From a virus (taxonomy: Duplodnaviria; Heunggongvirae; Uroviricota; Caudoviricetes): DNA of 8,771 bases. Under the pieces are notes generated by a model. The model saw only the letters and a program-made list of their open reading frames with translations, was not told the DNA's origin and did not search any database. The position numbers were made by a program, and so were the translations under genes. The number at the start of each line of letters is the position of its first letter. The first letter of the stretch is position 1. Shown piece after piece: positions 1 to 8,718 of this stretch. Where the stretch lies: the IMG/VR virus record IMGVR_UViG_2700989507_000003. The stretch is one strand, 5' to 3'.

Positions 1-2677
1 CCTTCAGCATGTACAGCGCAGCCAGGTCATCATTTGTGTCCTTCTGCACGCGCTGTATCTGCTGAATGGTGGCGCTCTGGTCTTCCAGCGTTTTACTGAC
101 CGTCTGTGTGATTTCATTGCGGGTTTCTGTGATGGTGGTCTGCATTTCCGCCATCTCGTCCTTCAGCTGACTGTTGTCAATCTCTGCCCACAGCGCCTCT
201 GCCAGATGCGTTTTTCCTATCTTTTCCCGGAAAAGTTCCAGATAGCCCGCAGCATCATTGCTCGCCCGTCCACTGGCTTCCACAAAAGCAGATTTACCCA
301 CCAGGTTGACGCTGCGCACATAAAACCAGAAATCCTTTCCGGGCTTAATGTGCGGACCGGAGACACTCCACTGACTGCCGGTCCCCAGATAACGGGCAGA
401 GGTTTCCACCTGTGCGGCGTCTGCAATTTTTGCCTCCGAAAACCAGAACTCAAACTGCACCGTCGGGTCATAAATGGTCAGTTTCGGGACTGCCGTTATC
501 TGAAAATACCCCGGCGTCAGTTCAACACCGGCAGGCGCTGCCGGTGCGTTAATCCGGAAGGTGGTGGTGGCCGGTTCGCCCTGCTGGCCATAACTGTTAA
601 TTGCCCTGACTGTCAGGGTGTATTCCCCGAGCGGCAGACCACTGAAACGATGCTCTGTATCCGCAGTGATGGCGGTGGTCACCAGACGGCTGTCTTCTCC
701 GCTTCCGCTGGTCAGGCGCAGACTGAAGCGCACACCCTTCACCACCCGCGGCGTGTCCCATTTCGCCTGTGCCAGATACTGACCGTCAGCCGCGCTCACC
801 TCCACCGTCAGGTGCTGCACTGCCGGTGGAATAACGCTGTTCAGGGTGCCTGACTGCGGCTCAAAGCTGGCCCCGTTATCCACGATGGCTTCTTTTTCCG
901 GTACGTGCTGCACCGCCGTGATGGCAAAGGTGCCGTCCGTGTTTTCCCGGATGGAGACACAGCGGAACAGGCGACGACGCAGTGACGGCAGGGAGAGTCC
1001 CCATACACCGTATGTCTCCACACCATCAGGCAGGGTGCTGACCTGTATCCGGTCCGGCGCGGGGTGTGCGGTGATGTCCACACTCACCGGCTTACCGCTG
1101 CCGTTAATCAGGTTCACCGTGGCGGCACCTGTCTCCGGCAGGGTCACCTCACGGTCCAGTGTCAGGGTGCGGCTGGCGGCATCGATGGACAGGATACGTC
1201 CGCCGGTCAGGGTCCCGGCATAGTCGTTATCACAGATTTCAATAATGTCACCGGGTGTGTGACGCAGCCCCTGTGACCCGAGCGTGAAATCCACCGTCTG
1301 CGTTTCCAGCAGTCCGGTCTTTATCACCCACAGCCCGGCACGGTGGGCCTGACCGCGACTGGTGCAGCCGAACGCATCCATCTTCAGCAGGTTGCGCCCG
1401 TAGCGCAGTATGGCTTCCGGGTCTTCCACCAGTTCCGTGGAGGTCTGCCAGCCGTTCTGCGGGTCGGTGTAATTCACCTCCACCGCCGTGTGGCGGTCCT
1501 TCAGGGCGCTGAAGCTGTAGCGAAACCCCACGCCGTTATCATCCACCACCACATCGCAGTTGGTGTACGGCCACACCACATCCGACGGGCGGTCCTGAAC
1601 GAACGTCAGCGTCTGGCCGTTCCATACCGGCATACAGCGCATCGCCGAGCAGAAATCACTGAGAACGTCCCACGCCTTACGCTGTTGTGACAGGTACGCA
1701 TTAAAGGTCATCCGCGGCTCTGTCCCTCCGAAGCCGTCCGGGACACGCTGGTCACAGTACTGCCCGATGGCATACAGCGCCCACTTGTCCACATCCGCGG
1801 CCCCCAGGCGTTTTCCCATGCCGTAGCGCGGGTGAGTCAGCATGTCCCACAGGCACCAGGCCGGGTTGTTGCTGTATGCCGGTTTCAGGCTGCCGTCCCA
1901 GATGCCGCTGTACGTGCGTTTTTCCGGGTCATAGTTTGACGGTACCTGAATGATGCGACCGCGGATATGGTAGTTCACCGTCATCTGCTGACCGCCAAAC
2001 TGCTCCGCATCCACCTGCAGCCCCACAATCGCCGTGTTCGGGTAGCACTGTTTCACATCGATGATTTCGGTGTATGACGACCAGAGCGTCTTATTCTGCA
2101 GCTGGTCCGTGGTGCTGTCCGCCGTCTCCCTGACCATCCGGATGTTAAAGGGGCGGGGAGGCAGATTATCCAGAATCACCGACGCCAGGTACTGTGAGGT
2201 GGTCTTGCCGTTAATGGTGACATCCTTTTCCGTCACCCAGTTACCGTTACGCTGCAACTGAATCAGCAGTCGGACAGAAGAGGGATTACGGTCGCCCTTT
2301 GAGGTGGTCTCCAACAGTGACTGCACCCCGAAGGTGACCCGCAGGCGGTCAATGTTCGCGGACGTAATGGTGCGCGTCACCGGCTTTGCTTTCGTCACTT
2401 CCACGCCCAGTGCGGTTTCCGCCCCGGAGGACTCAAAGCCTTCAGGTGGTGTCTGCTCCTGCTCCCCGGCGCGCCAGACCGCTGTCACACCATGTATCAC
2501 AGGATTACCGTCCGTGTCCGTCAGCGGGGTTTTGTTCACCAGAATACTCTGCAGCCCCTTCACCGGACCTTCAATCGGCCCTTCACCAATCGCATCAATC
2601 ACGCTCATCATCTGCGTGGACTTAAGATTGTCCTTTGCCTCAACCGGCGTGTGCGCCTTGCCGCCACCTTTGCCCAT
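1..2677 (-). CDS. J: Host-specificity / central tail fibre protein J, 5' portion (about 892 codons); 3' end lies beyond the window start
   Basis: ATG at 2677..2675 preceded by AAAGGGTGAGACA. Hand translation gives [39 protein letters not shown] at the N-terminus, [19 protein letters not shown] around 1800-1860, and [19 protein letters not shown] at the window edge, all in the same phase. The ORF track shows no stop-terminated minus ORF in this phase, consistent with an open frame running off the window. The N-terminal two thirds match my recollection of lambda gpJ, and the gene sits immediately downstream of I. Confidence 0.9.
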
Positions 2678-2710
2678 TGTCTCACCCTTTACTGTGATCA
2701 CTGTTACGCA

Positions 2711-2742
2711 CAAAAACAACAGGCATCCCGGAGGATGCCTGT
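2711..2742 (-). terminator. Intrinsic-terminator-like hairpin on the operon strand, about 35 nt upstream of the J start
   Basis: Perfect 10-bp inverted repeat ACAGGCATCC / GGATGCCTGT (2719-2728 and 2733-2742) with a 4-nt loop. On the minus strand it is followed by TGTTTTTGTG (2718..2709), and on the plus strand it is preceded by an A-tract. Read directly from the sequence; function not demonstrated. Confidence 0.4.
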
Positions 2743-2876
2743 ATCATGACTGAATAAAAATTCTGAATATCTTCACATTTTCTGTACGCCCCCGTGGCAG
2801 ATATCATTCCCGGGCGTTACAGTTTTTTCGGGCCAATAAAAACAAAACTCCCTGTGGTTAATCTTCATTTTCTGTT

Positions 2877-2907
2877 CCCGCAGCCTTCGGTCACTGCGGG
2901 ATTTTTT
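2877..2907 (+). terminator. Intrinsic-terminator-like hairpin oriented on the plus strand (antisense to the tail operon), abutting the I stop codon
   Basis: 7-bp stem CCCGCAG (2877-2883) / CTGCGGG (2894-2900) with a 10-nt loop, followed on the plus strand by A then TTTTTT CGC TTTT (2901-2914). On the minus strand the hairpin is followed by AACAGAAAATG, so it is not terminator-like in the operon direction. Confidence 0.4.
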
Positions 2908-2912
2908 CGCTT

Positions 2913-3593
2913 TTATGCCTGCCGCCCGATAACCACCACCTTCCCGTCACCGCCTTCATCACGGGTACTGATGTCCTGGGAGATTCGCCGTGAGCCAACC
3001 AGCATTTCACCGTAAGGCACCGGCATCGGGTTCCCCTGTGCAATCATGTTATCCAGCGAGGAAAAGTACGTGTTCTGTCTGCCGTTATCCGTGCTTTTGT
3101 ACTCCGGTACTTTAGCCTTCGGGGCCAGCATCTGAGCCACACCACCCAGTATCATGCTGGCCCCCAGTGAAAACAGCATCGTGGTGGCAGAAAAACCACC
3201 GGCTGCCAGGGCTGAACCCCATAACGCCATCGTTGCGCCGGCGGTGAAGAAAGAGCCCACGATGGCTGCCGCCCCCAGCACAATCTGCAGTCCACCCTTT
3301 CCGGCCCCGGCCAGTCGCGGCACAATGTGGATGACCGTTCCCTCACCCAGCTGTTCGTGAAGACGGGCGTACACCGCCTCCGGTGCCGTGTCATCACCGG
3401 CAATACGTATCTGGTACCAGCCTTCGTTCATCTGACGGCGGAATCCGGGCACCTGTAACGACAGCGCCCGGATGGCTTCCGCTGCCGTGTTCACATACAG
3501 GCTGAGGCGGCGGCCAAATCGTTGTAAATCCCCGTGAAGGCAGATGCGTGCCAGTGGCGGTGACGCCAGACAGAATGCGTTCGTCGTTGCCAT
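2913..3593 (-). CDS. I: Tail assembly protein I (226 aa)
   Basis: ORF-track ORF 2913..3593(-). Protein MATTNAFCLASPPLARICLHGDLQRFGRR...QNTYFSSLDNMIAQGN...VVVIGRQA matches my recollection of lambda gpI (223 aa) along its length. Start lies inside the 3' end of K (103-nt overlap), similar to the K/I overlap in lambda. Stop TAA at 2915..2913. Confidence 0.9.
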   Translation of the reverse strand: MATTNAFCLASPPLARICLHGDLQRFGRRLSLYVNTAAEAIRALSLQVPGFRRQMNEGWYQIRIAGDDTAPEAVYARLHEQLGEGTVIHIVPRLAGAGKGGLQIVLGAAAIVGSFFTAGATMALWGSALAAGGFSATTMLFSLGASMILGGVAQMLAPKAKVPEYKSTDNGRQNTYFSSLDNMIAQGNPMPVPYGEMLVGSRRISQDISTRDEGGDGKVVVIGRQA

Positions 3594-4234
3594 TTTTCGG
3601 AATACCTCTCCCGTTTACTCAGTTGTTCAGGCAGATGGTGAAGCAGTTCACCGTTGCCGCAGTAAATGGCGGCATGATTGGCCACCGATGCGCCAAAGCA
3701 GCACAGCAGGATATCGCCCGCCTGTGCAGAGGACAGGGGCACCCGGTAAAAGCCGGTGACCGCCATATTGTCCAGATACAGGTTCTGACCATTGCGCCAC
3801 CACTCATCCTCGCGGTGAAAATCCGGCAGCGTTATCCCCGCCAGATGGCAGGCATCCCTGAACAGCGTGTAACAGTCCGTCACCCCGTGTTCAAAACGAC
3901 GCCCGGTCAGGTGCGGCACACAGCGGAATTTATGAATGTCCCCCCGGCAGACCAGCCACCAGGGCAGGGCACTTTTTATCTGCAGCCGCCGGTCGGCCTC
4001 GCTCAGCCAGGGCAGGCCACCGGGATGGCTGTGGACCAGTGCCACAATCTCCCCCTGCATCTCTGCCCGCAGCCAGTCTTCCGGGGCAATACGAAAATAT
4101 GCCTCAGGCTCTGCAGAGATATTCACGCACGGCTGGTACCGGTCACCCTCCGGCGTGCTTATCACGAAGCCGCAAGACTCCGCAGGCGCACACCGCCGGG
4201 CATGCGCCAGAATCGCTGATTCTGTCTCTGTCAT
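3491..4234 (-). CDS. K: Tail tip assembly protein K (247 aa from ATG 4234) with JAMM/MPN-like and NlpC/P60-like motifs
   Basis: The ORF track gives 3491..4489 (332 aa), but the first 85 codons overlap L in another frame. ATG at 4234..4232 lies 4 nt after the L stop (TAA 4241..4239) and yields MTETESAILAHARRCA..., matching the gpK N-terminus as I recall it. HSHPGGLPWLSEAD fits the JAMM pattern H-x-H-x7-S-x2-D; a Cys in GVTDCYTLF and downstream His residues fit an NlpC/P60-type C-terminal half. Confidence 0.85.
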   Translation of the reverse strand: MTETESAILAHARRCAPAESCGFVISTPEGDRYQPCVNISAEPEAYFRIAPEDWLRAEMQGEIVALVHSHPGGLPWLSEADRRLQIKSALPWWLVCRGDIHKFRCVPHLTGRRFEHGVTDCYTLFRDACHLAGITLPDFHREDEWWRNGQNLYLDNMAVTGFYRVPLSSAQAGDILLCCFGASVANHAAIYCGNGELLHHLPEQLSKRERYSEKWQRRTHSVWRHRHWHASAFTGIYNDLAAASACM

Positions 4235-4238
4235 GGAT

Positions 4239-4937
4239 TTACTGCGAAAGTTTATTAATGGAAAGGAAACCGCCAAAATTAGCCACCATGCCGCGCATCT
4301 CACACCCGCGCATGCACTTGCTGCATCTGTCCTTACGGATATCCGTGGTGGGGTTGTCGAACTCATCCGCCACCGCAGGACCGTTATACCCGCATTCATC
4401 TCCCCGGTAATCCCACATACAGGTGTTCGCCAGCATGATGCGACCGGGAAACAGCGCCCCATCCGTCTCGGTCGGTGTAGCCAGCACAAACGAGGCCGTC
4501 ATGGCTGTCAGCTGCGACATCTGCTCCACCACCCAGCGGTCACTCAGCTCCTGCTCCGGGTCCGCCTCCGGATTGCCCGCAACGAAATTCACCGCATCCA
4601 GAAAACGGGCATACACCCGGCGGCGGACCACCGTGGCCCCCACCAGACTCTGCAGGTCCTCCGCCATCCCGGTGACAAGGCCAAACAGATTGGACACCGT
4701 CAGCGACGGGCGGGCACTGCTGCCCTTTCCGTTCATCTCAAAGCCGCTGCCCTCAATCGGGTACGCCTGATATTCACGCCCCTGCCAGGTCACCGGCTCC
4801 CCTTTTTCATTCAGCTCATTGCAGAAAAAATACCGCTCACCGCCCTGCGCCGTCAGGTCGATTTCCCAGAGTACCACCCGCGGTGACTGCTCTGATTTAA
4901 CCGACTCGTTCAGACTTTCTTCGTGAATATCCTGCAT
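4239..4937 (-). CDS. L: Minor tail (tail tip) protein L (232 aa)
   Basis: ORF-track ORF 4239..4937(-). MQDIHEESLNESVKSEQSPRVVLWEIDLTAQGGERYFFCNE... is the same length as lambda gpL and closely similar as I recall it. The start ATG overlaps the M stop as ATGA (4939..4935). C-terminal Cys cluster C173, C182, C205, C208, C212. Confidence 0.92.
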   Translation of the reverse strand: MQDIHEESLNESVKSEQSPRVVLWEIDLTAQGGERYFFCNELNEKGEPVTWQGREYQAYPIEGSGFEMNGKGSSARPSLTVSNLFGLVTGMAEDLQSLVGATVVRRRVYARFLDAVNFVAGNPEADPEQELSDRWVVEQMSQLTAMTASFVLATPTETDGALFPGRIMLANTCMWDYRGDECGYNGPAVADEFDNPTTDIRKDRCSKCMRGCEMRGMVANFGGFLSINKLSQ

Positions 4938-5266
4938 CAGTTCACCACCTGCTTAAACTCCGCGCTGAACTCAACGCGCAACATCCCGACCCGCGCAGAC
5001 CACCCGGCACAGGTCACCTTTATCTGCCGGTATGCATAGGGTGGCTTCCACAAAAATGCCTTCCAGCCCCCGTGCTCTGCCAGAAACGCTTCCAGATGCC
5101 GGGCCTCCTCCCGGGTCACGGAAAGCGTCACCCGGTATGTTTTCAGGTCAGCATTCAGCCCTGCCGCCATACGCTGTGAGTACCCGTCACCAAAACGCAC
5201 TTCACGCACCGATGGCTGTGAGTTCACCTCCATATCCGGCTTCACTTTCCAGCGAAAGGTTTTCAT
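4937..5266 (-). CDS. M: Minor tail protein M (109 aa)
   Basis: ORF-track ORF 4937..5266(-). MKTFRWKVKPDMEVNSQPSVREVRFGDGYSQR...RVEFSAEFKQVVN has the same length as lambda gpM and near-identical termini as I recall them. The start ATG overlaps the H stop as ATGA (5266..5263). Confidence 0.92.
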   Translation of the reverse strand: MKTFRWKVKPDMEVNSQPSVREVRFGDGYSQRMAAGLNADLKTYRVTLSVTREEARHLEAFLAEHGGWKAFLWKPPYAYRQIKVTCAGWSARVGMLRVEFSAEFKQVVN

Positions 5267-7875
5267 CGCCCGCTCCCTGATAACATACCGCCATCACGCA
5301 ACTGCAGCCGGAGCTCATCCTGCGCCCCCTTGCGGGCCATGTCATACACCGCCTTCATCAGCTGCGGCCCCGCCTGTCCGTTGGTGCCGTCGTTCTGAAT
5401 CACCACGTGATTGTTCTGATTAAAATTAATGCCTTCCGTCCGCCGCATCTGCGCCGGACTTCCGGCACCGCCCACATAACCACCTTCCGCATAGCCGCGC
5501 ATCAGACGGTAAAGATTCCCCACACCTATCCGGCTGGTTGCCTCTTTCGTGAAAACAAACTCCCCGCGGTGAACTATCCCCGCAGGCTCATATTTGCCGC
5601 CCGTCCCCGTAAATCCTCCGGTCGCGAAATGGAAGTTCGCCGCCGCAGCCTCAATGGCCGTCCCCGAGGAAGCAGATGCACCACCACCGAAAGCACCGCC
5701 AATGGCGCTGCCGATACGCCCGACAATGCCCACCATGGCCTGTTTAAGCAGGATTTCTGTCATCATGGACAGCACAGAACGGGTGAATCCCCGCCAGTCT
5801 GCCTCTGCACCGGTCAGCATCGCCGCCATATTCTGTGCAATACCGTCAAAGGTCTGCGTGGCAGCACTTTTAACCTGCGAAAAACTGTCCGTCGCACTTT
5901 CCGCCCACTCGCCCCAGCCGGACTTCAGCCCGGCCATCCAGCTTCCACGAAGCTGCTCCTCCGCAGACCAGGTGTTCTTCAGTGCCGATGTGGCCTTCGC
6001 CAGCGCAGCCGGATTATCACCGTACACGTCCCGAAGACGCTGCGCTTCAGACTCCCGCTGCGCCTGACGGTCAGTGAGACCGCGGGCTTTTGCGCTGATG
6101 GCGGCCTGCTTCGAGCTCTGCTGCTCTTCAAACCGCACCGCCTGCTGTGCCAGCTCATTCAGGCGTTTCTGGTATTCAACCTTGTCGCCCAGCTCAGCCA
6201 GCTGGCGTTTGTACTCCAGCGTCTCGTCTTTATGCGCCAGCAGGGATTTTTCCTGCTCAGATAACTGTCGTTTCGTGGCAGCCTCTTTCAGGACCGCATA
6301 CTGACTTTCCGCCTTCCATAAATCACGGCGCTGCCGGCTGATTTTCTCATTCGCACCGCTGTGTTTTTCCAGCGTCCTGAGCTCAGCTTCAAGGGCAAGC
6401 AGAGCCTCTCTTGCCTGCTCCTCTTCCCTCTCCCCGGCAGAGCGCGTTTTCGGTGATGTATGCTTTTTACCTGTCAGCTCTTCAGCCAGACGGCTGACGG
6501 CTTCCTGCTGCCCTGGACCTTTGCTGACGCCTGTTGCACGCGAGCGGTTGATGTACCCTATTTCCCCCTGGCGTATACGCGCATCCCGTTCCGCAATGGA
6601 TTTTCTCAGCGCCAGTTCATCGCGTTTTGTTTTCTCAATAAATACGCGGTTCTCTTCTGCCAGTTCACCAAACAACGCACCAACGCCGGGCACATTCTTT
6701 GTCGTTTCCCAGGCTGACTGAATAAATTCAGCCAGCGCCAGATCCCCCTGCACAAGCAGCAGCTTCACTTGTTCAACGGTTCCGGCCACCACGTCAGTGA
6801 TCAGACTGAGTGCCCCCAGTGTATGATCACCTATCCATGCCCATGCGTCAGAAGTCCAGGTTTTAACATCGTCCCAGATTTTTTCCACCGGCGTGGCCGC
6901 TTTATCAAGTTGCTCCAGACGTGCATTCATGACATCCGCAAACAGGGACATCGCCTCCGTCACCGCAGCCTGTTTACCTTTCGTGCGCTCAAGCTCATCA
7001 ATATGGCGTAACTGGGAAACGCTCAGGAAGTTATACTGCTGATTCAGGGAGGCCAGCGCCTTCACCGGATCTGCTGCAATCCCTTCAAAGGCTTTTTCCA
7101 CCTTCCCGGCATCGTCCCCCACCGTCTGCAGCCATCTCTGAGAGGTTTCCCCCATGATCCGTAGCTGCCCGGCGGTATATTTCCCGCTTTCTGCCAGACG
7201 GGCCAGATTTTCTGCCGCCTGTCTGATACCACCACCGGCTTCATCGCTGATCACCCCGGCCATTTTCCACAATTCTGCCGTTGTGGTGGCAGCCGCCCCT
7301 CCGGTCAGGATCAGTGAACGCAATAAGGCCCGGTCAGCCTGCTCTGCCTGCCAGGCGGCGGCAGCAAGCGCGGCCAGTACGGCAACCCCGCCACCTGCCG
7401 CCACACGGGCCACCGACATAAATCGTCCCAGCTCACCGGCATTCCGGGCATTTTCAGCCAGTGCATTTGCCGTATCTGACAGCGACTCCTCTGATGATTC
7501 AGAGGCATCCCTGATCCCGAGAAGTTCCTCCTTCAGCAGGGTAAGCAGGCTGAGCGGTCCACCGAATGAATCGCTGATCTGCCCCCCCTGCTGCAGCATG
7601 ATAAGGAAGGGATTCTGACCACCGGCAAGCTGAGTGACAATATCCGTGAACTGTGCGGGCAGTGTGCGCATGGCAGCCTTATACTGTCCGACTGATATCC
7701 CGGCTTTTTGTGCCGCCAGCGCCTGTCGGCTCAGCCCCTGTTCAACAGTACTGGCGGTTTTTCTGGCATCCGCCTCCAGACTGGAAAAATGACGGCGTAC
7801 CCGGGCCATCTGTTCATCAAACCGGGCCGCATCCAGACTCAAATCAATAACCAGATCACCCGCTGGCTGGGACAT
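5263..7875 (-). CDS. H: Tail tape measure protein H (870 aa)
   Basis: ORF-track ORF 5263..7875(-). N-terminus MSQPAGDLVIDLSLDAARFDEQMARVRRHFSS... and the C-terminal third (...LEAELRTLEKHSGANEKISRQRRDLWKAESQ...FHFATGGFTGTGGKYEPAGIVHRGEFVFTKEATSRIGVGNLYRLMRGYA...) resemble lambda gpH as I recall it; the central region is Ala/Gly/Glu-rich and helical in character. GGAGG lies 8 nt upstream of the ATG (7888..7884). The start overlaps the T stop by 20 nt. Confidence 0.93.
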   Translation of the reverse strand: MSQPAGDLVIDLSLDAARFDEQMARVRRHFSSLEADARKTASTVEQGLSRQALAAQKAGISVGQYKAAMRTLPAQFTDIVTQLAGGQNPFLIMLQQGGQISDSFGGPLSLLTLLKEELLGIRDASESSEESLSDTANALAENARNAGELGRFMSVARVAAGGGVAVLAALAAAAWQAEQADRALLRSLILTGGAAATTTAELWKMAGVISDEAGGGIRQAAENLARLAESGKYTAGQLRIMGETSQRWLQTVGDDAGKVEKAFEGIAADPVKALASLNQQYNFLSVSQLRHIDELERTKGKQAAVTEAMSLFADVMNARLEQLDKAATPVEKIWDDVKTWTSDAWAWIGDHTLGALSLITDVVAGTVEQVKLLLVQGDLALAEFIQSAWETTKNVPGVGALFGELAEENRVFIEKTKRDELALRKSIAERDARIRQGEIGYINRSRATGVSKGPGQQEAVSRLAEELTGKKHTSPKTRSAGEREEEQAREALLALEAELRTLEKHSGANEKISRQRRDLWKAESQYAVLKEAATKRQLSEQEKSLLAHKDETLEYKRQLAELGDKVEYQKRLNELAQQAVRFEEQQSSKQAAISAKARGLTDRQAQRESEAQRLRDVYGDNPAALAKATSALKNTWSAEEQLRGSWMAGLKSGWGEWAESATDSFSQVKSAATQTFDGIAQNMAAMLTGAEADWRGFTRSVLSMMTEILLKQAMVGIVGRIGSAIGGAFGGGASASSGTAIEAAAANFHFATGGFTGTGGKYEPAGIVHRGEFVFTKEATSRIGVGNLYRLMRGYAEGGYVGGAGSPAQMRRTEGINFNQNNHVVIQNDGTNGQAGPQLMKAVYDMARKGAQDELRLQLRDGGMLSGSGR

Positions 7876-8320
7876 ATCTCACACCTCCGGAAATCCCCGC
7901 TGAAGCCATCATTAATGCAACATCATCCTCGCTGACATCCACCACATCCGCAGAAGGTGAAATATCGCGCCCTCCGTCCCCTCCGAACCGGACGCCTCCG
8001 GCAACTCCTGTCGCTTTCTGCATCAGCATTTCTTCCTCGTCCGGCATCTCCGTCTGCTCTTCCTCACACGCTGGAGCAAGCAGACTGAAATCCGCCGGAT
8101 GCATATCCGGATCGCCAAAAAACAGGCTGAGTACGGCGTACATCAGCCCGGAAAAATGAGCGTCCAGTTGGGTATCCTGAAAATAATGCGTGCAGTAAAA
8201 ACGTCGCCAGTCGGCATATTCGGTGGATGTCATCCCGGCAAGCATGGCGCGCCAGTCGGGTCTCCCCATCTCTCGCGCCAGTTTCAGGACAAAGTTCAGC
8301 TCGCCTTCGAATGCTTTTTT
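7856..8320 (-). CDS. T: T segment of the tail assembly chaperone G-T fusion, read in the -1 frame from the slippery site; predicted fusion is G residues 1-135 + AFEGELNFVLKLARE + the 137-aa T ORF, about 287 aa
   Basis: The -1 frame relative to G is open from 8332 (in-frame TGA at 8335..8333) to the stop at 7858..7856. It contains ORF-track ORF 7856..8269 (MGRPDWRAMLAGMTSTEYADWRRFY...DPDMHPADFSLL...GGVRFG...), which resembles lambda gpT as I recall it. The ATG at 8269 has no convincing Shine-Dalgarno sequence, consistent with expression only as a G-T fusion as in lambda. Confidence 0.85.
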   Translation of the reverse strand, partial: KKAFEGELNFVLKLAREMGRPDWRAMLAGMTSTEYADWRRFYCTHYFQDTQLDAHFSGLMYAVLSLFFGDPDMHPADFSLLAPACEEEQTEMPDEEEMLMQKATGVAGGVRFGGDGGRDISPSADVVDVSEDDVALMMASAGISGGVRYVPASG

Positions 8321-8718
8321 GATGTTACCGGCTCAGTCGCTTCTGCTTTCCCGGTTTGTTCAGGATCGGCATCGTGCCGGTTATCCAGCATACCTGAAAG
8401 ATAAAGCACCCGGTTCGTTGCCTGATTCAGTGCATCAGCAGGCCATCCCAGCATCACTTCACGGCGGATCTGCTGCATCTCTGTCTCCGGAGAGGCCAGA
8501 GTGCCTTTGAGGGAATGGGAATGCCATAGCGACATCGCCACAAGCAGGGATGCCGTTTCCAGATATCGCTGGTTAATGTGCACGACATAATGCTTCGTTG
8601 TCTCCTGTTGTTCTGCGTCTGAAACAAACTTTATATAATCAAACCGCTGCAGCGCAGACAATTCGGAAAGCGTGACGGACACACCGTTATATTCAAATTG
8701 TTCTGTTTTCAGAAACAT
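8296..8718 (-). CDS. G: Tail assembly chaperone G (140 aa)
   Basis: ORF-track ORF 8296..8718(-). MFLKTEQFEYNGVSVTLSELSALQR... has the same length as lambda gpG and an N-terminus and central LVAMSLWH motif matching my recollection of it. GGAGG (8729..8725) lies 6 nt upstream of the ATG. Followed by T in the -1 frame. Confidence 0.9.
   Translation of the reverse strand: MFLKTEQFEYNGVSVTLSELSALQRFDYIKFVSDAEQQETTKHYVVHINQRYLETASLLVAMSLWHSHSLKGTLASPETEMQQIRREVMLGWPADALNQATNRVLYLSGMLDNRHDADPEQTGKAEATEPVTSKKHSKAS
8314..8320 (-). promoter_or_regulatory. Programmed -1 ribosomal frameshift slippery heptamer A_AAA_AAG (G into T)
   Basis: The minus strand reads ACA TCA AAA AAG CAT in the G frame (K134, K135), i.e. 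X_XXY_YYZ = A_AAA_AAG. It lies 16 nt upstream of the G stop, and the -1 frame is open from here through T. Same heptamer class as E. coli dnaX. Confidence 0.75.

Follow-up and report, generated by a model that had tools for sequence, protein, structure and literature searches.

The divergent segment of a lambdoid prophage J protein is very probably a longer allele of its alpha-helical shaft and not its receptor-binding end

The window analysed here is 8771 bp of DNA, the whole of contig JZDZ01000072.1 of the draft assembly GCA_000965655.1, and it carries a block of tail genes on the minus strand. Every product of the tail block matched its expected Pfam family above the gathering score, and the open reading frames, the Pfam matches and the called genes all placed J after G-T-H-M-L-K-I, which is the lambda-type position. 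J begins at an ATG at 2677 (MGKGGGK...) and its frame runs without a stop to base 2, which gives 892 aa. The first-pass annotation of this DNA had noted that the remainder of J lies outside the window, and the contig itself ends there; as J is truncated by the contig end, extending the window cannot recover the rest of the gene. The features that are needed below are the following.

8296-8718, minus strand: gene G (ORF and Pfam).
7856-8269, minus strand: gene T (ORF and Pfam).
5263-7875, minus strand: gene H, the tape-measure gene (ORF and Pfam).
4937-5266, minus strand: gene M (ORF and Pfam).
4239-4937, minus strand: gene L (ORF and Pfam).
3491-4234, minus strand: gene K (ORF and Pfam).
2913-3593, minus strand: gene I (ORF and Pfam).
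2913-8718, minus strand: the tail genes I, K, L, M, H, T and G taken together, upstream of J and in lambda order (ORFs, Pfam and the gene calls of the source contig).
2678-2912, minus strand: the I-J intergenic spacer of 235 nt, listed as context only and outside the finding.
1-2677, minus strand: J, the tip attachment or central tail fibre protein, N-terminal 892 codons (open frame from the ATG at 2677, Pfam and colinearity with lambda).
542-853, minus strand: first Ig/FNIII domain, J residues 609-712 (Pfam PF24421 Ig_J, E = 6.8e-42).
230-538, minus strand: second Ig/FNIII domain, J residues 714-816 (Pfam PF24489 Ig_J_second, E = 1.7e-38).
17-259, minus strand: the divergent segment, very probably the alpha-helical shaft, J residues 807-887, equivalent to lambda gpJ 809-861 (alignment of the flanks to solved structures, with the limits of PMC11101478).
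86-169, minus strand: 28 residues without a lambda counterpart, about 837-864 (MAFFT gap and the stretch left unaligned by HMMER).
2-16, minus strand: the five codons at the contig end (YMLK region), which correspond to lambda 862-866, where the protein passes into the beta-prism (alignment with the RM12761 and lambda J proteins).

The I-J spacer, which is about 60 nt in lambda, contains a terminator-like hairpin at 2742-2719. An Rfam scan of the window returned no family at gathering score.

Four Pfam domains were recognised in the J product, FNIII-A_GpJ (143.9 bits), Phage-tail_3 (129.6 bits), Ig_J (142.3 bits) and Ig_J_second (131.3 bits), against cut-offs of 23-29 bits. As the reference we used lambda gpJ (1132 aa, from NC_001416), of which structures have been solved (PDB 8iyk, 8xci and 8xcj) and with which the window protein shares its gene position, its series of Pfam domains and colinearity over all 892 residues, the MAFFT alignment requiring two 1-residue gaps and one 28-residue insertion. 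Identity to gpJ was 76% for J residues 1-640 and 67% for residues 641-808; the second Ig/FNIII domain, whose end forms the upstream boundary of the divergent segment, is likewise 67% identical. The drop in identity begins at the GYL of GYLELF, J residue 811 (nt 247), and across lambda 809-861 the proteins agree at 17 of 53 residues (32%), with the window protein carrying the additional 28 residues. At the flank identity of 0.72, the probability of obtaining 17 or fewer matches in 53 is 2e-9. DNA identity to lambda J is about 75% throughout, with a trough of 50-58% in the last 250 nt, and this trough was all that the DNA comparison revealed, no sharp recombination junction being found between the two J genes.

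These comparisons bear on several claims of the first-pass annotation, which had singled out a peptide encoded below about position 250 as departing from lambda J near the window edge. The peptide that it quoted is the exact translation of the minus strand, its position is right and the divergence is real. The accompanying statement that the protein up to that point follows lambda gpJ closely is correct as to colinearity, but at about 75% identity in both protein and DNA the two are far from near-identical. It had also allowed that the segment might turn out to be colinear with, and similar to, lambda residues of about 800-900; the segment is indeed colinear, but only 32% identical, and its counterpart is lambda about 816-866 and not the whole of 800-900.

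Relatives with a complete J allowed the segment to be placed between its two flanks. The J protein of RM12761 (E. coli O145:H28, WP_025380388.1, 1159 aa) is encoded by DNA 100% identical to the last 300 nt of the window. When its C-terminal 459 residues were compared by HMMER with the solved lambda chains (8iyk, 8xci and 8xcj, matched on both flanks), query residues 1-135 corresponded to lambda 702-836 and residues 164-458 to lambda 837-1131, so that only 28 residues (136-163) were left unaligned. The placement of this 28-residue gap is approximate to within a few residues, since identity in that region is only 32%. The Pfam boundaries gave the same picture. The last residue of Ig_J_second is 816 in the window protein and 818 in lambda, and the first of Phage_Tail_Tip is 872 in RM12761 J and 845 in lambda, which leaves a gap between the two models of 54 residues in RM12761 J compared with 26 in lambda. 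No Pfam model spans the shaft, and from these boundary positions the extra 28 residues must therefore fall in the part of the shaft that the models do not cover. Thus, by both HMMER and the Pfam gap, the shaft lies after the second FNIII domain (FNIII-2) and before the beta-prism, and is flanked on either side by homologous sequence.

Beyond the shaft, the similarity to lambda returns. Over the next ~125 residues, which form the prism, RM12761 J is back to 70% identity with gpJ, with conserved stretches such as KDG..YVAGIG, FVAQGNQ.FMNDVFLKRL and NPPAFSLTPDG.LTAKNADISGSVNANSGTL, and only in its last ~160 residues, the Ig_GpJ_C receptor domain, does the identity fall to 44%. Both the Phage_Tail_Tip prism and the Ig_GpJ_C domain are present in RM12761 J and lie beyond the end of the window's contig, and in the relatives the receptor-binding domain starts about 120 residues beyond the window. 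We therefore favour, with a probability of roughly 0.85, the interpretation that the divergent piece is the helical shaft linking the tail hub to the fibre, present as one common allele that is 28 residues longer than that of lambda, and that it is not the receptor-binding end of the protein.

In lambda gpJ the domains follow one another in the order FNIII-1, FNIII-2, shaft, prism and receptor domain, and the shaft (residues 809-861) is remodelled when LamB is bound, residues 841-861 becoming beta strands atop the prism once the receptor is engaged (PMC11101478). An AlphaFold2 model of J residues 641-892 as a monomer contained two beta-sandwich domains followed by helices over 810-891, at positions 170-179, 183-193 and 197-251 of the 252-residue query; the pLDDT of the shaft in this monomer model was low (38-74). 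A low value is unsurprising for a single chain of a trimer. By homology with lambda, the job of the shaft would be mechanical: it would form a helical rod under the FNIII ring, with the tail-tip hub on one side and the beta-prism fibre and terminal receptor-binding domain on the other, and in the free virion three copies would form a helical bundle beneath the FNIII-2 ring that clamps the tip shut. Binding of the distal domain to its receptor would twist the prism; the shaft might then loosen or unwind and partly refold onto the prism, passing the signal upward, so that the FNIII strings would separate and the hub, or tail tip, would open. The central fibres of the F-type pyocins F7 and F2 may be regarded as analogous, as they too have a long trimeric alpha-helical shaft between hub and beta-prism that is variable in length among homologues, but their shafts are far longer (163 residues or more), include an insertion domain and have side fibres bound to them.

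The composition of the segment had led the first-pass annotation to describe it as heptad-like and rich in Gln, Glu and Thr. The second part of this description was borne out (29 of the 89 residues in the flagged segment are T, E or Q); the first is loose, as the hydrophobic periodicity of the window shaft peaks at 3.6-3.625 and not at 3.5 (p about 0.55 over the whole band, about 0.02 at a fixed 3.6). A canonical heptad coiled coil was rejected, since no single register places the core residues and the power at 3.5 is unremarkable. With a strict heptad failing, a 29/8 (3.625) periodicity was adopted, which is significant in longer homologues only. These came from a search of 1.8 billion representative proteins with the fragment from FNIII-2 to the receptor domain, which identified two rarer E. 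coli J proteins with shafts of 160 residues (GDM45370.1) and 258 residues (WP_436627100.1). Both contain obvious 29-residue tandem repeats, with self-similarity at offsets of 29, 58 and 87, and both are periodic in hydrophobicity at 3.625-3.65 (~29/8; p <= 0.001) with essentially no power at 3.5. Of 1000 shuffles, none or almost none reached the peak observed in the long homologues.

Measured from GYL to KDG, the window shaft has 87 residues, corresponding to three 29-residue units, and that of lambda has 59. When the window shaft was written in rows of 29, its middle row could be matched to the repeat unit of the longer homologues; roughly this row is what lambda is missing. The difference from lambda thus amounts to about one repeat unit, and the repeat is better described as one of 29 residues (7+11+11-like). 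Internal duplication was rejected as the origin of the extra 28 residues, the 87-residue shaft showing no self-similarity. Nor is there a clean deletion in lambda: 84 nt are absent at the DNA level, but clean deletion junctions are lacking. The rise of an alpha-helix is about 0.15 nm per residue, and the extra unit, if fully helical, would add roughly 4 nm of rod.

To determine the distribution of shaft lengths, C-terminal halves of J from 80 loci in IMG/VR and 35 in GTDB were reduced to 54 usable unique sequences; the homologous-protein search had given mostly partial J fragments from draft assemblies, useless for linking shaft to receptor domain. The shaft had 87 residues in 48 of the 54 and 59 residues in the other 6, no other length being found, although these relatives were collected by similarity to the window and the allele counts are biased toward the window type. 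Three main alleles could be distinguished: the long window type, a second long type (e.g. locus L079) and the short lambda type. Within an allele the shaft sequence is conserved at 86-100%. Among 5426 complete E. coli genomes, the window type occurred in 746, the lambda-type short shaft in 2587 and the second long type in 3549, so that the window shaft is one of at least three common alleles, and the supposition that only lambda has the short shaft is wrong. Many lambda-identical matches in unrelated genera represent lambda contamination.

The same 54 sequences showed that the shaft cassette assorts independently of the type of receptor domain. The window-type shaft was paired with five receptor-domain clusters, and two clusters (R4 and R6) occurred with long and short shafts alike. 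Upstream, lambda-like FNIII-2 domains accompanied the second long allele in some sequences and the short allele in others. In contrast to this free assortment, 51 of the 54 sequences showed linkage between the shaft allele and the N-terminal 55 residues of the prism. Partial megablast matches to the 3' region of RM12761 J start or end at a few recurring positions, located within the shaft, at the conserved FVAQGNQ patch and where the receptor domain begins. From the assortment, the linkage and the match ends together we conclude that the shaft and the upper prism form a mosaic cassette distinct from the receptor module. The shaft travels with the top of the prism and exchanges partners freely on both sides, with the upstream FNIII domain as with the downstream receptor domain.

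Such variability could also mean that the shaft is a low-constraint spacer that has drifted, in which repeats are gained and lost without functional consequence. The 32% identity to lambda between preserved flanks fits this reading, lengths of 59, 87, 160 and 258 residues all exist in E. coli J proteins, and identical receptor domains function with either of the main lengths. Against it, conservation within each allele is high, just two lengths prevail across thousands of genomes, shaft and prism top co-segregate, and the lambda counterpart of the shaft belongs to the opening mechanism (PMC11101478). We consider neutral drift possible but rather unlikely. At the other extreme, the shaft and prism top might constitute an exchangeable 'trigger cassette' of 29-residue (7+11+11) units, whose number of copies (about 2, 3, 5.5 and 9 in the J proteins of E. 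coli) would tune the reach of the fibre or the stroke of the helix-to-sheet transition by which the tail opens, so that the three-unit allele would differ functionally from the two-unit allele of lambda, for example by being suited to hosts with thicker surface layers; this suggestion is speculative, and unlikely as it stands.

A related idea is that the extra 29-residue unit enlarges an element that switches fold. The conversion of lambda 841-861 into beta strands atop the prism in the open state provides a precedent (PMC11101478), the F7 pyocin switches a 163-residue coiled coil, with similar behaviour predicted for many siphophage fibres (PMC12874032), and the prism top with which the shaft allele co-segregates would be the surface for refolding. 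However, the insertion maps near the part of the lambda shaft that stays helical, and the strand motif SxSxxMxxLxS occurred once in the long shaft, where 0.99 occurrences were expected, and not at all in the lambda shaft; the F7-pyocin-type motif is thus not enriched, and enlargement of a fold-switching element seems quite improbable.

The first-pass annotation had itself proposed that a swapped distal module begins at the divergence, such that everything to the C-terminus would be foreign to lambda and a new receptor would follow. What stands of this proposal is that the divergence is localised and lies in a mosaic cassette: identity drops sharply at the boundary of FNIII-2 and shaft, FNIII-2 types recombine with different shaft alleles at that boundary, and one relative (P0010) changes to an unrelated distal fibre, albeit further downstream. 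What does not stand is that the segment is the start of a swapped receptor region. Where relatives match the final 300 nt exactly, their prism is again 70% identical to lambda, the R4 and R6 receptor domains occur with both shafts, and the chimeric gpJ A8, described below, uses another receptor with the lambda shaft and prism in place. The similarity of the prism, the alignment to the solved chains and the pairings of shaft with receptor domain thus largely refute the swapped module, which we regard as very unlikely.

A8 was engineered by giving lambda gpJ the C-terminus of a natural variant, and it delivered DNA via OmpC into a lamB-deleted host (Brodel et al. 2024, PMC11338833; PDB 9wca/9wcb). 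The solved A8 chain keeps the lambda shaft and prism, its fusion point lying just after GSVNANSGTL. Since A8 uses OmpC with the lambda shaft retained, the shaft is not needed for a change of receptor; the receptor is set by the last ~160 residues of J and not by the shaft. The receptor domain of the closest relatives is identical to that of A8 gpJ in 9wca at 157 of 159 residues (98.7%), whereas at 44% identity to lambda gpJ about 1001-1132 it lacks the close similarity expected of a LamB-binding domain of the lambda type. A8 differs from the natural protein in being an engineered fusion with the short lambda shaft and prism, where the protein here has the long shaft, and its link to the window runs through the relatives.

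The closest relatives are 97-98% identical to the whole window over 8.8 kb, and in all of the best of them the 3' end of J matches that of RM12761 at 99% identity or more. The lambdoid prophages of EHEC/STEC strains such as RM12761, and the long-tailed Stx1a- and Stx2a-converting phages, have a J essentially identical to that of the window over about 2 kb, the RM12761-type gene differing by a few patchy changes within nt 1-600 of J and around residues 601-608. Records at least 99% identical numbered 66 over the last 300 nt of the window and 52 when 800 nt of downstream J, covering shaft and receptor domain, were added. On this sequence evidence the J of the window strain quite probably ends in the A8/OmpC-type domain. 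A receptor other than LamB is accordingly likely for the window phage, as the first-pass annotation had supposed; its supposition was probably right, as the relatives carry the A8/OmpC type, but the evidence comes from outside the window and is independent of the segment on which it had been based.

That the longer shaft serves to anchor side fibres or some other accessory protein, in the manner of an F-type pyocin, is extremely improbable: three side-fibre trimers do bind a kink in the shaft of the F2 pyocin (PMC13455828) and in the prophage relatives a side tail fibre gene follows J and lom, but the side fibres of Ur-lambda attach via a collar at the gpV/gpM junction and not to the J shaft (PMC12617516), the tail module of the window prophage is lambda-like throughout, and no kink-forming glycine is evident in the extra unit.

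The identification of the segment as a longer shaft is real but ordinary, in that this J allele is already known, widespread and annotated. Hundreds of sequenced EHEC/STEC prophages already have it annotated, so that a match to it in a genome scan has little significance, and the likely receptor domain has already been characterised, both functionally and structurally, as the A8/OmpC type. A literature search for earlier descriptions of the shaft polymorphism found nothing relevant. For annotation, the lesson is that divergence from lambda J at the FNIII-2 boundary does not amount to a receptor switch, and that receptor calls need the last ~160 residues. The discrete shaft lengths, their co-segregation with the prism top and the free reassortment of receptor domains provide natural variants with which the role of shaft length could be tested in the mechanism of tail opening described for lambda and the F-type pyocins, a minor point that may be of use in work on siphophage tail triggering.

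Two further points concern the relatives' gene and the missing end of J. The gene is annotated in the relatives as 'phage attachment tail tip protein J', and the end of an A8-type J reads ...NNVTINENCQIKGKL...STAGISIS. The contig that carries the rest of the window J would be expected to start with ...VQKTKDGIPYVAGIG.

The partial J protein P0010 (436 aa, encoded on a 31.5-kb contig) has a shaft, the helical segment preceding the beta-prism, and an upper prism of the window type, and beyond FVAQGNQLF it continues into an unrelated distal sequence (...GWRFSRNGKLEINSSNDGG...). Thus, a quite different distal fibre can be joined to J inside the conserved patch of the prism. The shaft itself is extended in two rare variants, the E. 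coli J proteins P0123 (GDM45370.1) and P0147 (WP_436627100.1), in which it reaches 160 and 258 residues and is built of near-perfect tandem repeats of 29 and 58 residues; each protein forms a singleton cluster in a collection of 15 billion proteins. A further homologue, P0150 (774 aa), is a J fragment running from the second FNIII domain onward and fused directly to an unrelated N-terminal sequence, which looks like either a misassembly or a rearranged prophage.

On a smaller scale, at about 860-885 of the window (J residues about 601-608) the protein reads NGASFE-PQ, whereas both lambda and the E. coli O145:H28 strain RM12761 have NGAHFDGDQ. As the RM12761 protein is otherwise near-identical, this local mismatch with its one-codon deletion suggests a short gene-conversion tract.

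The window corresponds in full to the draft contig JZDZ01000072.1 (GCA_000965655.1), so that the assembly break at position 1 falls inside J, at the transition from shaft to prism. Many E. coli genomes carry several copies of J, and the piece at the contig end occurs at a median of 4 places per genome, which is consistent with a repeat-induced break; we infer that its source would be downstream J sequence common to prophages of the same genome. Segments of J identical to that of lambda were also found on contigs of GTDB representative genomes (L090-L099) from Neobacillus, Kitasatospora, Leeuwenhoekiella, Pseudomonas, Shewanella, Desulfosporosinus, Oceanobacillus and other genera. The labels of several of these contigs give a coverage of about 1x, and the segments most likely represent contamination of the assemblies with lambda DNA rather than real prophages.

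Upstream of J, the spacer separating it from I is 235 nt long, compared to about 60 nt in lambda, and contains a terminator-like hairpin located about 40 nt upstream of the J start codon:

2678-2912, minus strand, I-J intergenic spacer (235 nt)
2742-2719, minus strand, terminator-like hairpin, ACAGGCATCC-TCCG-GGATGCCTGT, then TGTTTTTGTG

Neither an open reading frame of at least 50 aa nor an Rfam match was found within 2678-2912. The same spacer is present, unannotated, in about 70 records of Stx-converting phages at 95-99% identity.

Finally, the heptamer A_AAA_AAG at 8314-8320 (minus strand) appears to be the site of the programmed -1 frameshift between G and T, for which lambda uses G_GGA_AAG instead. 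A -1 slip at this heptamer gives an open G-T fusion of 287 aa that continues into the T frame.
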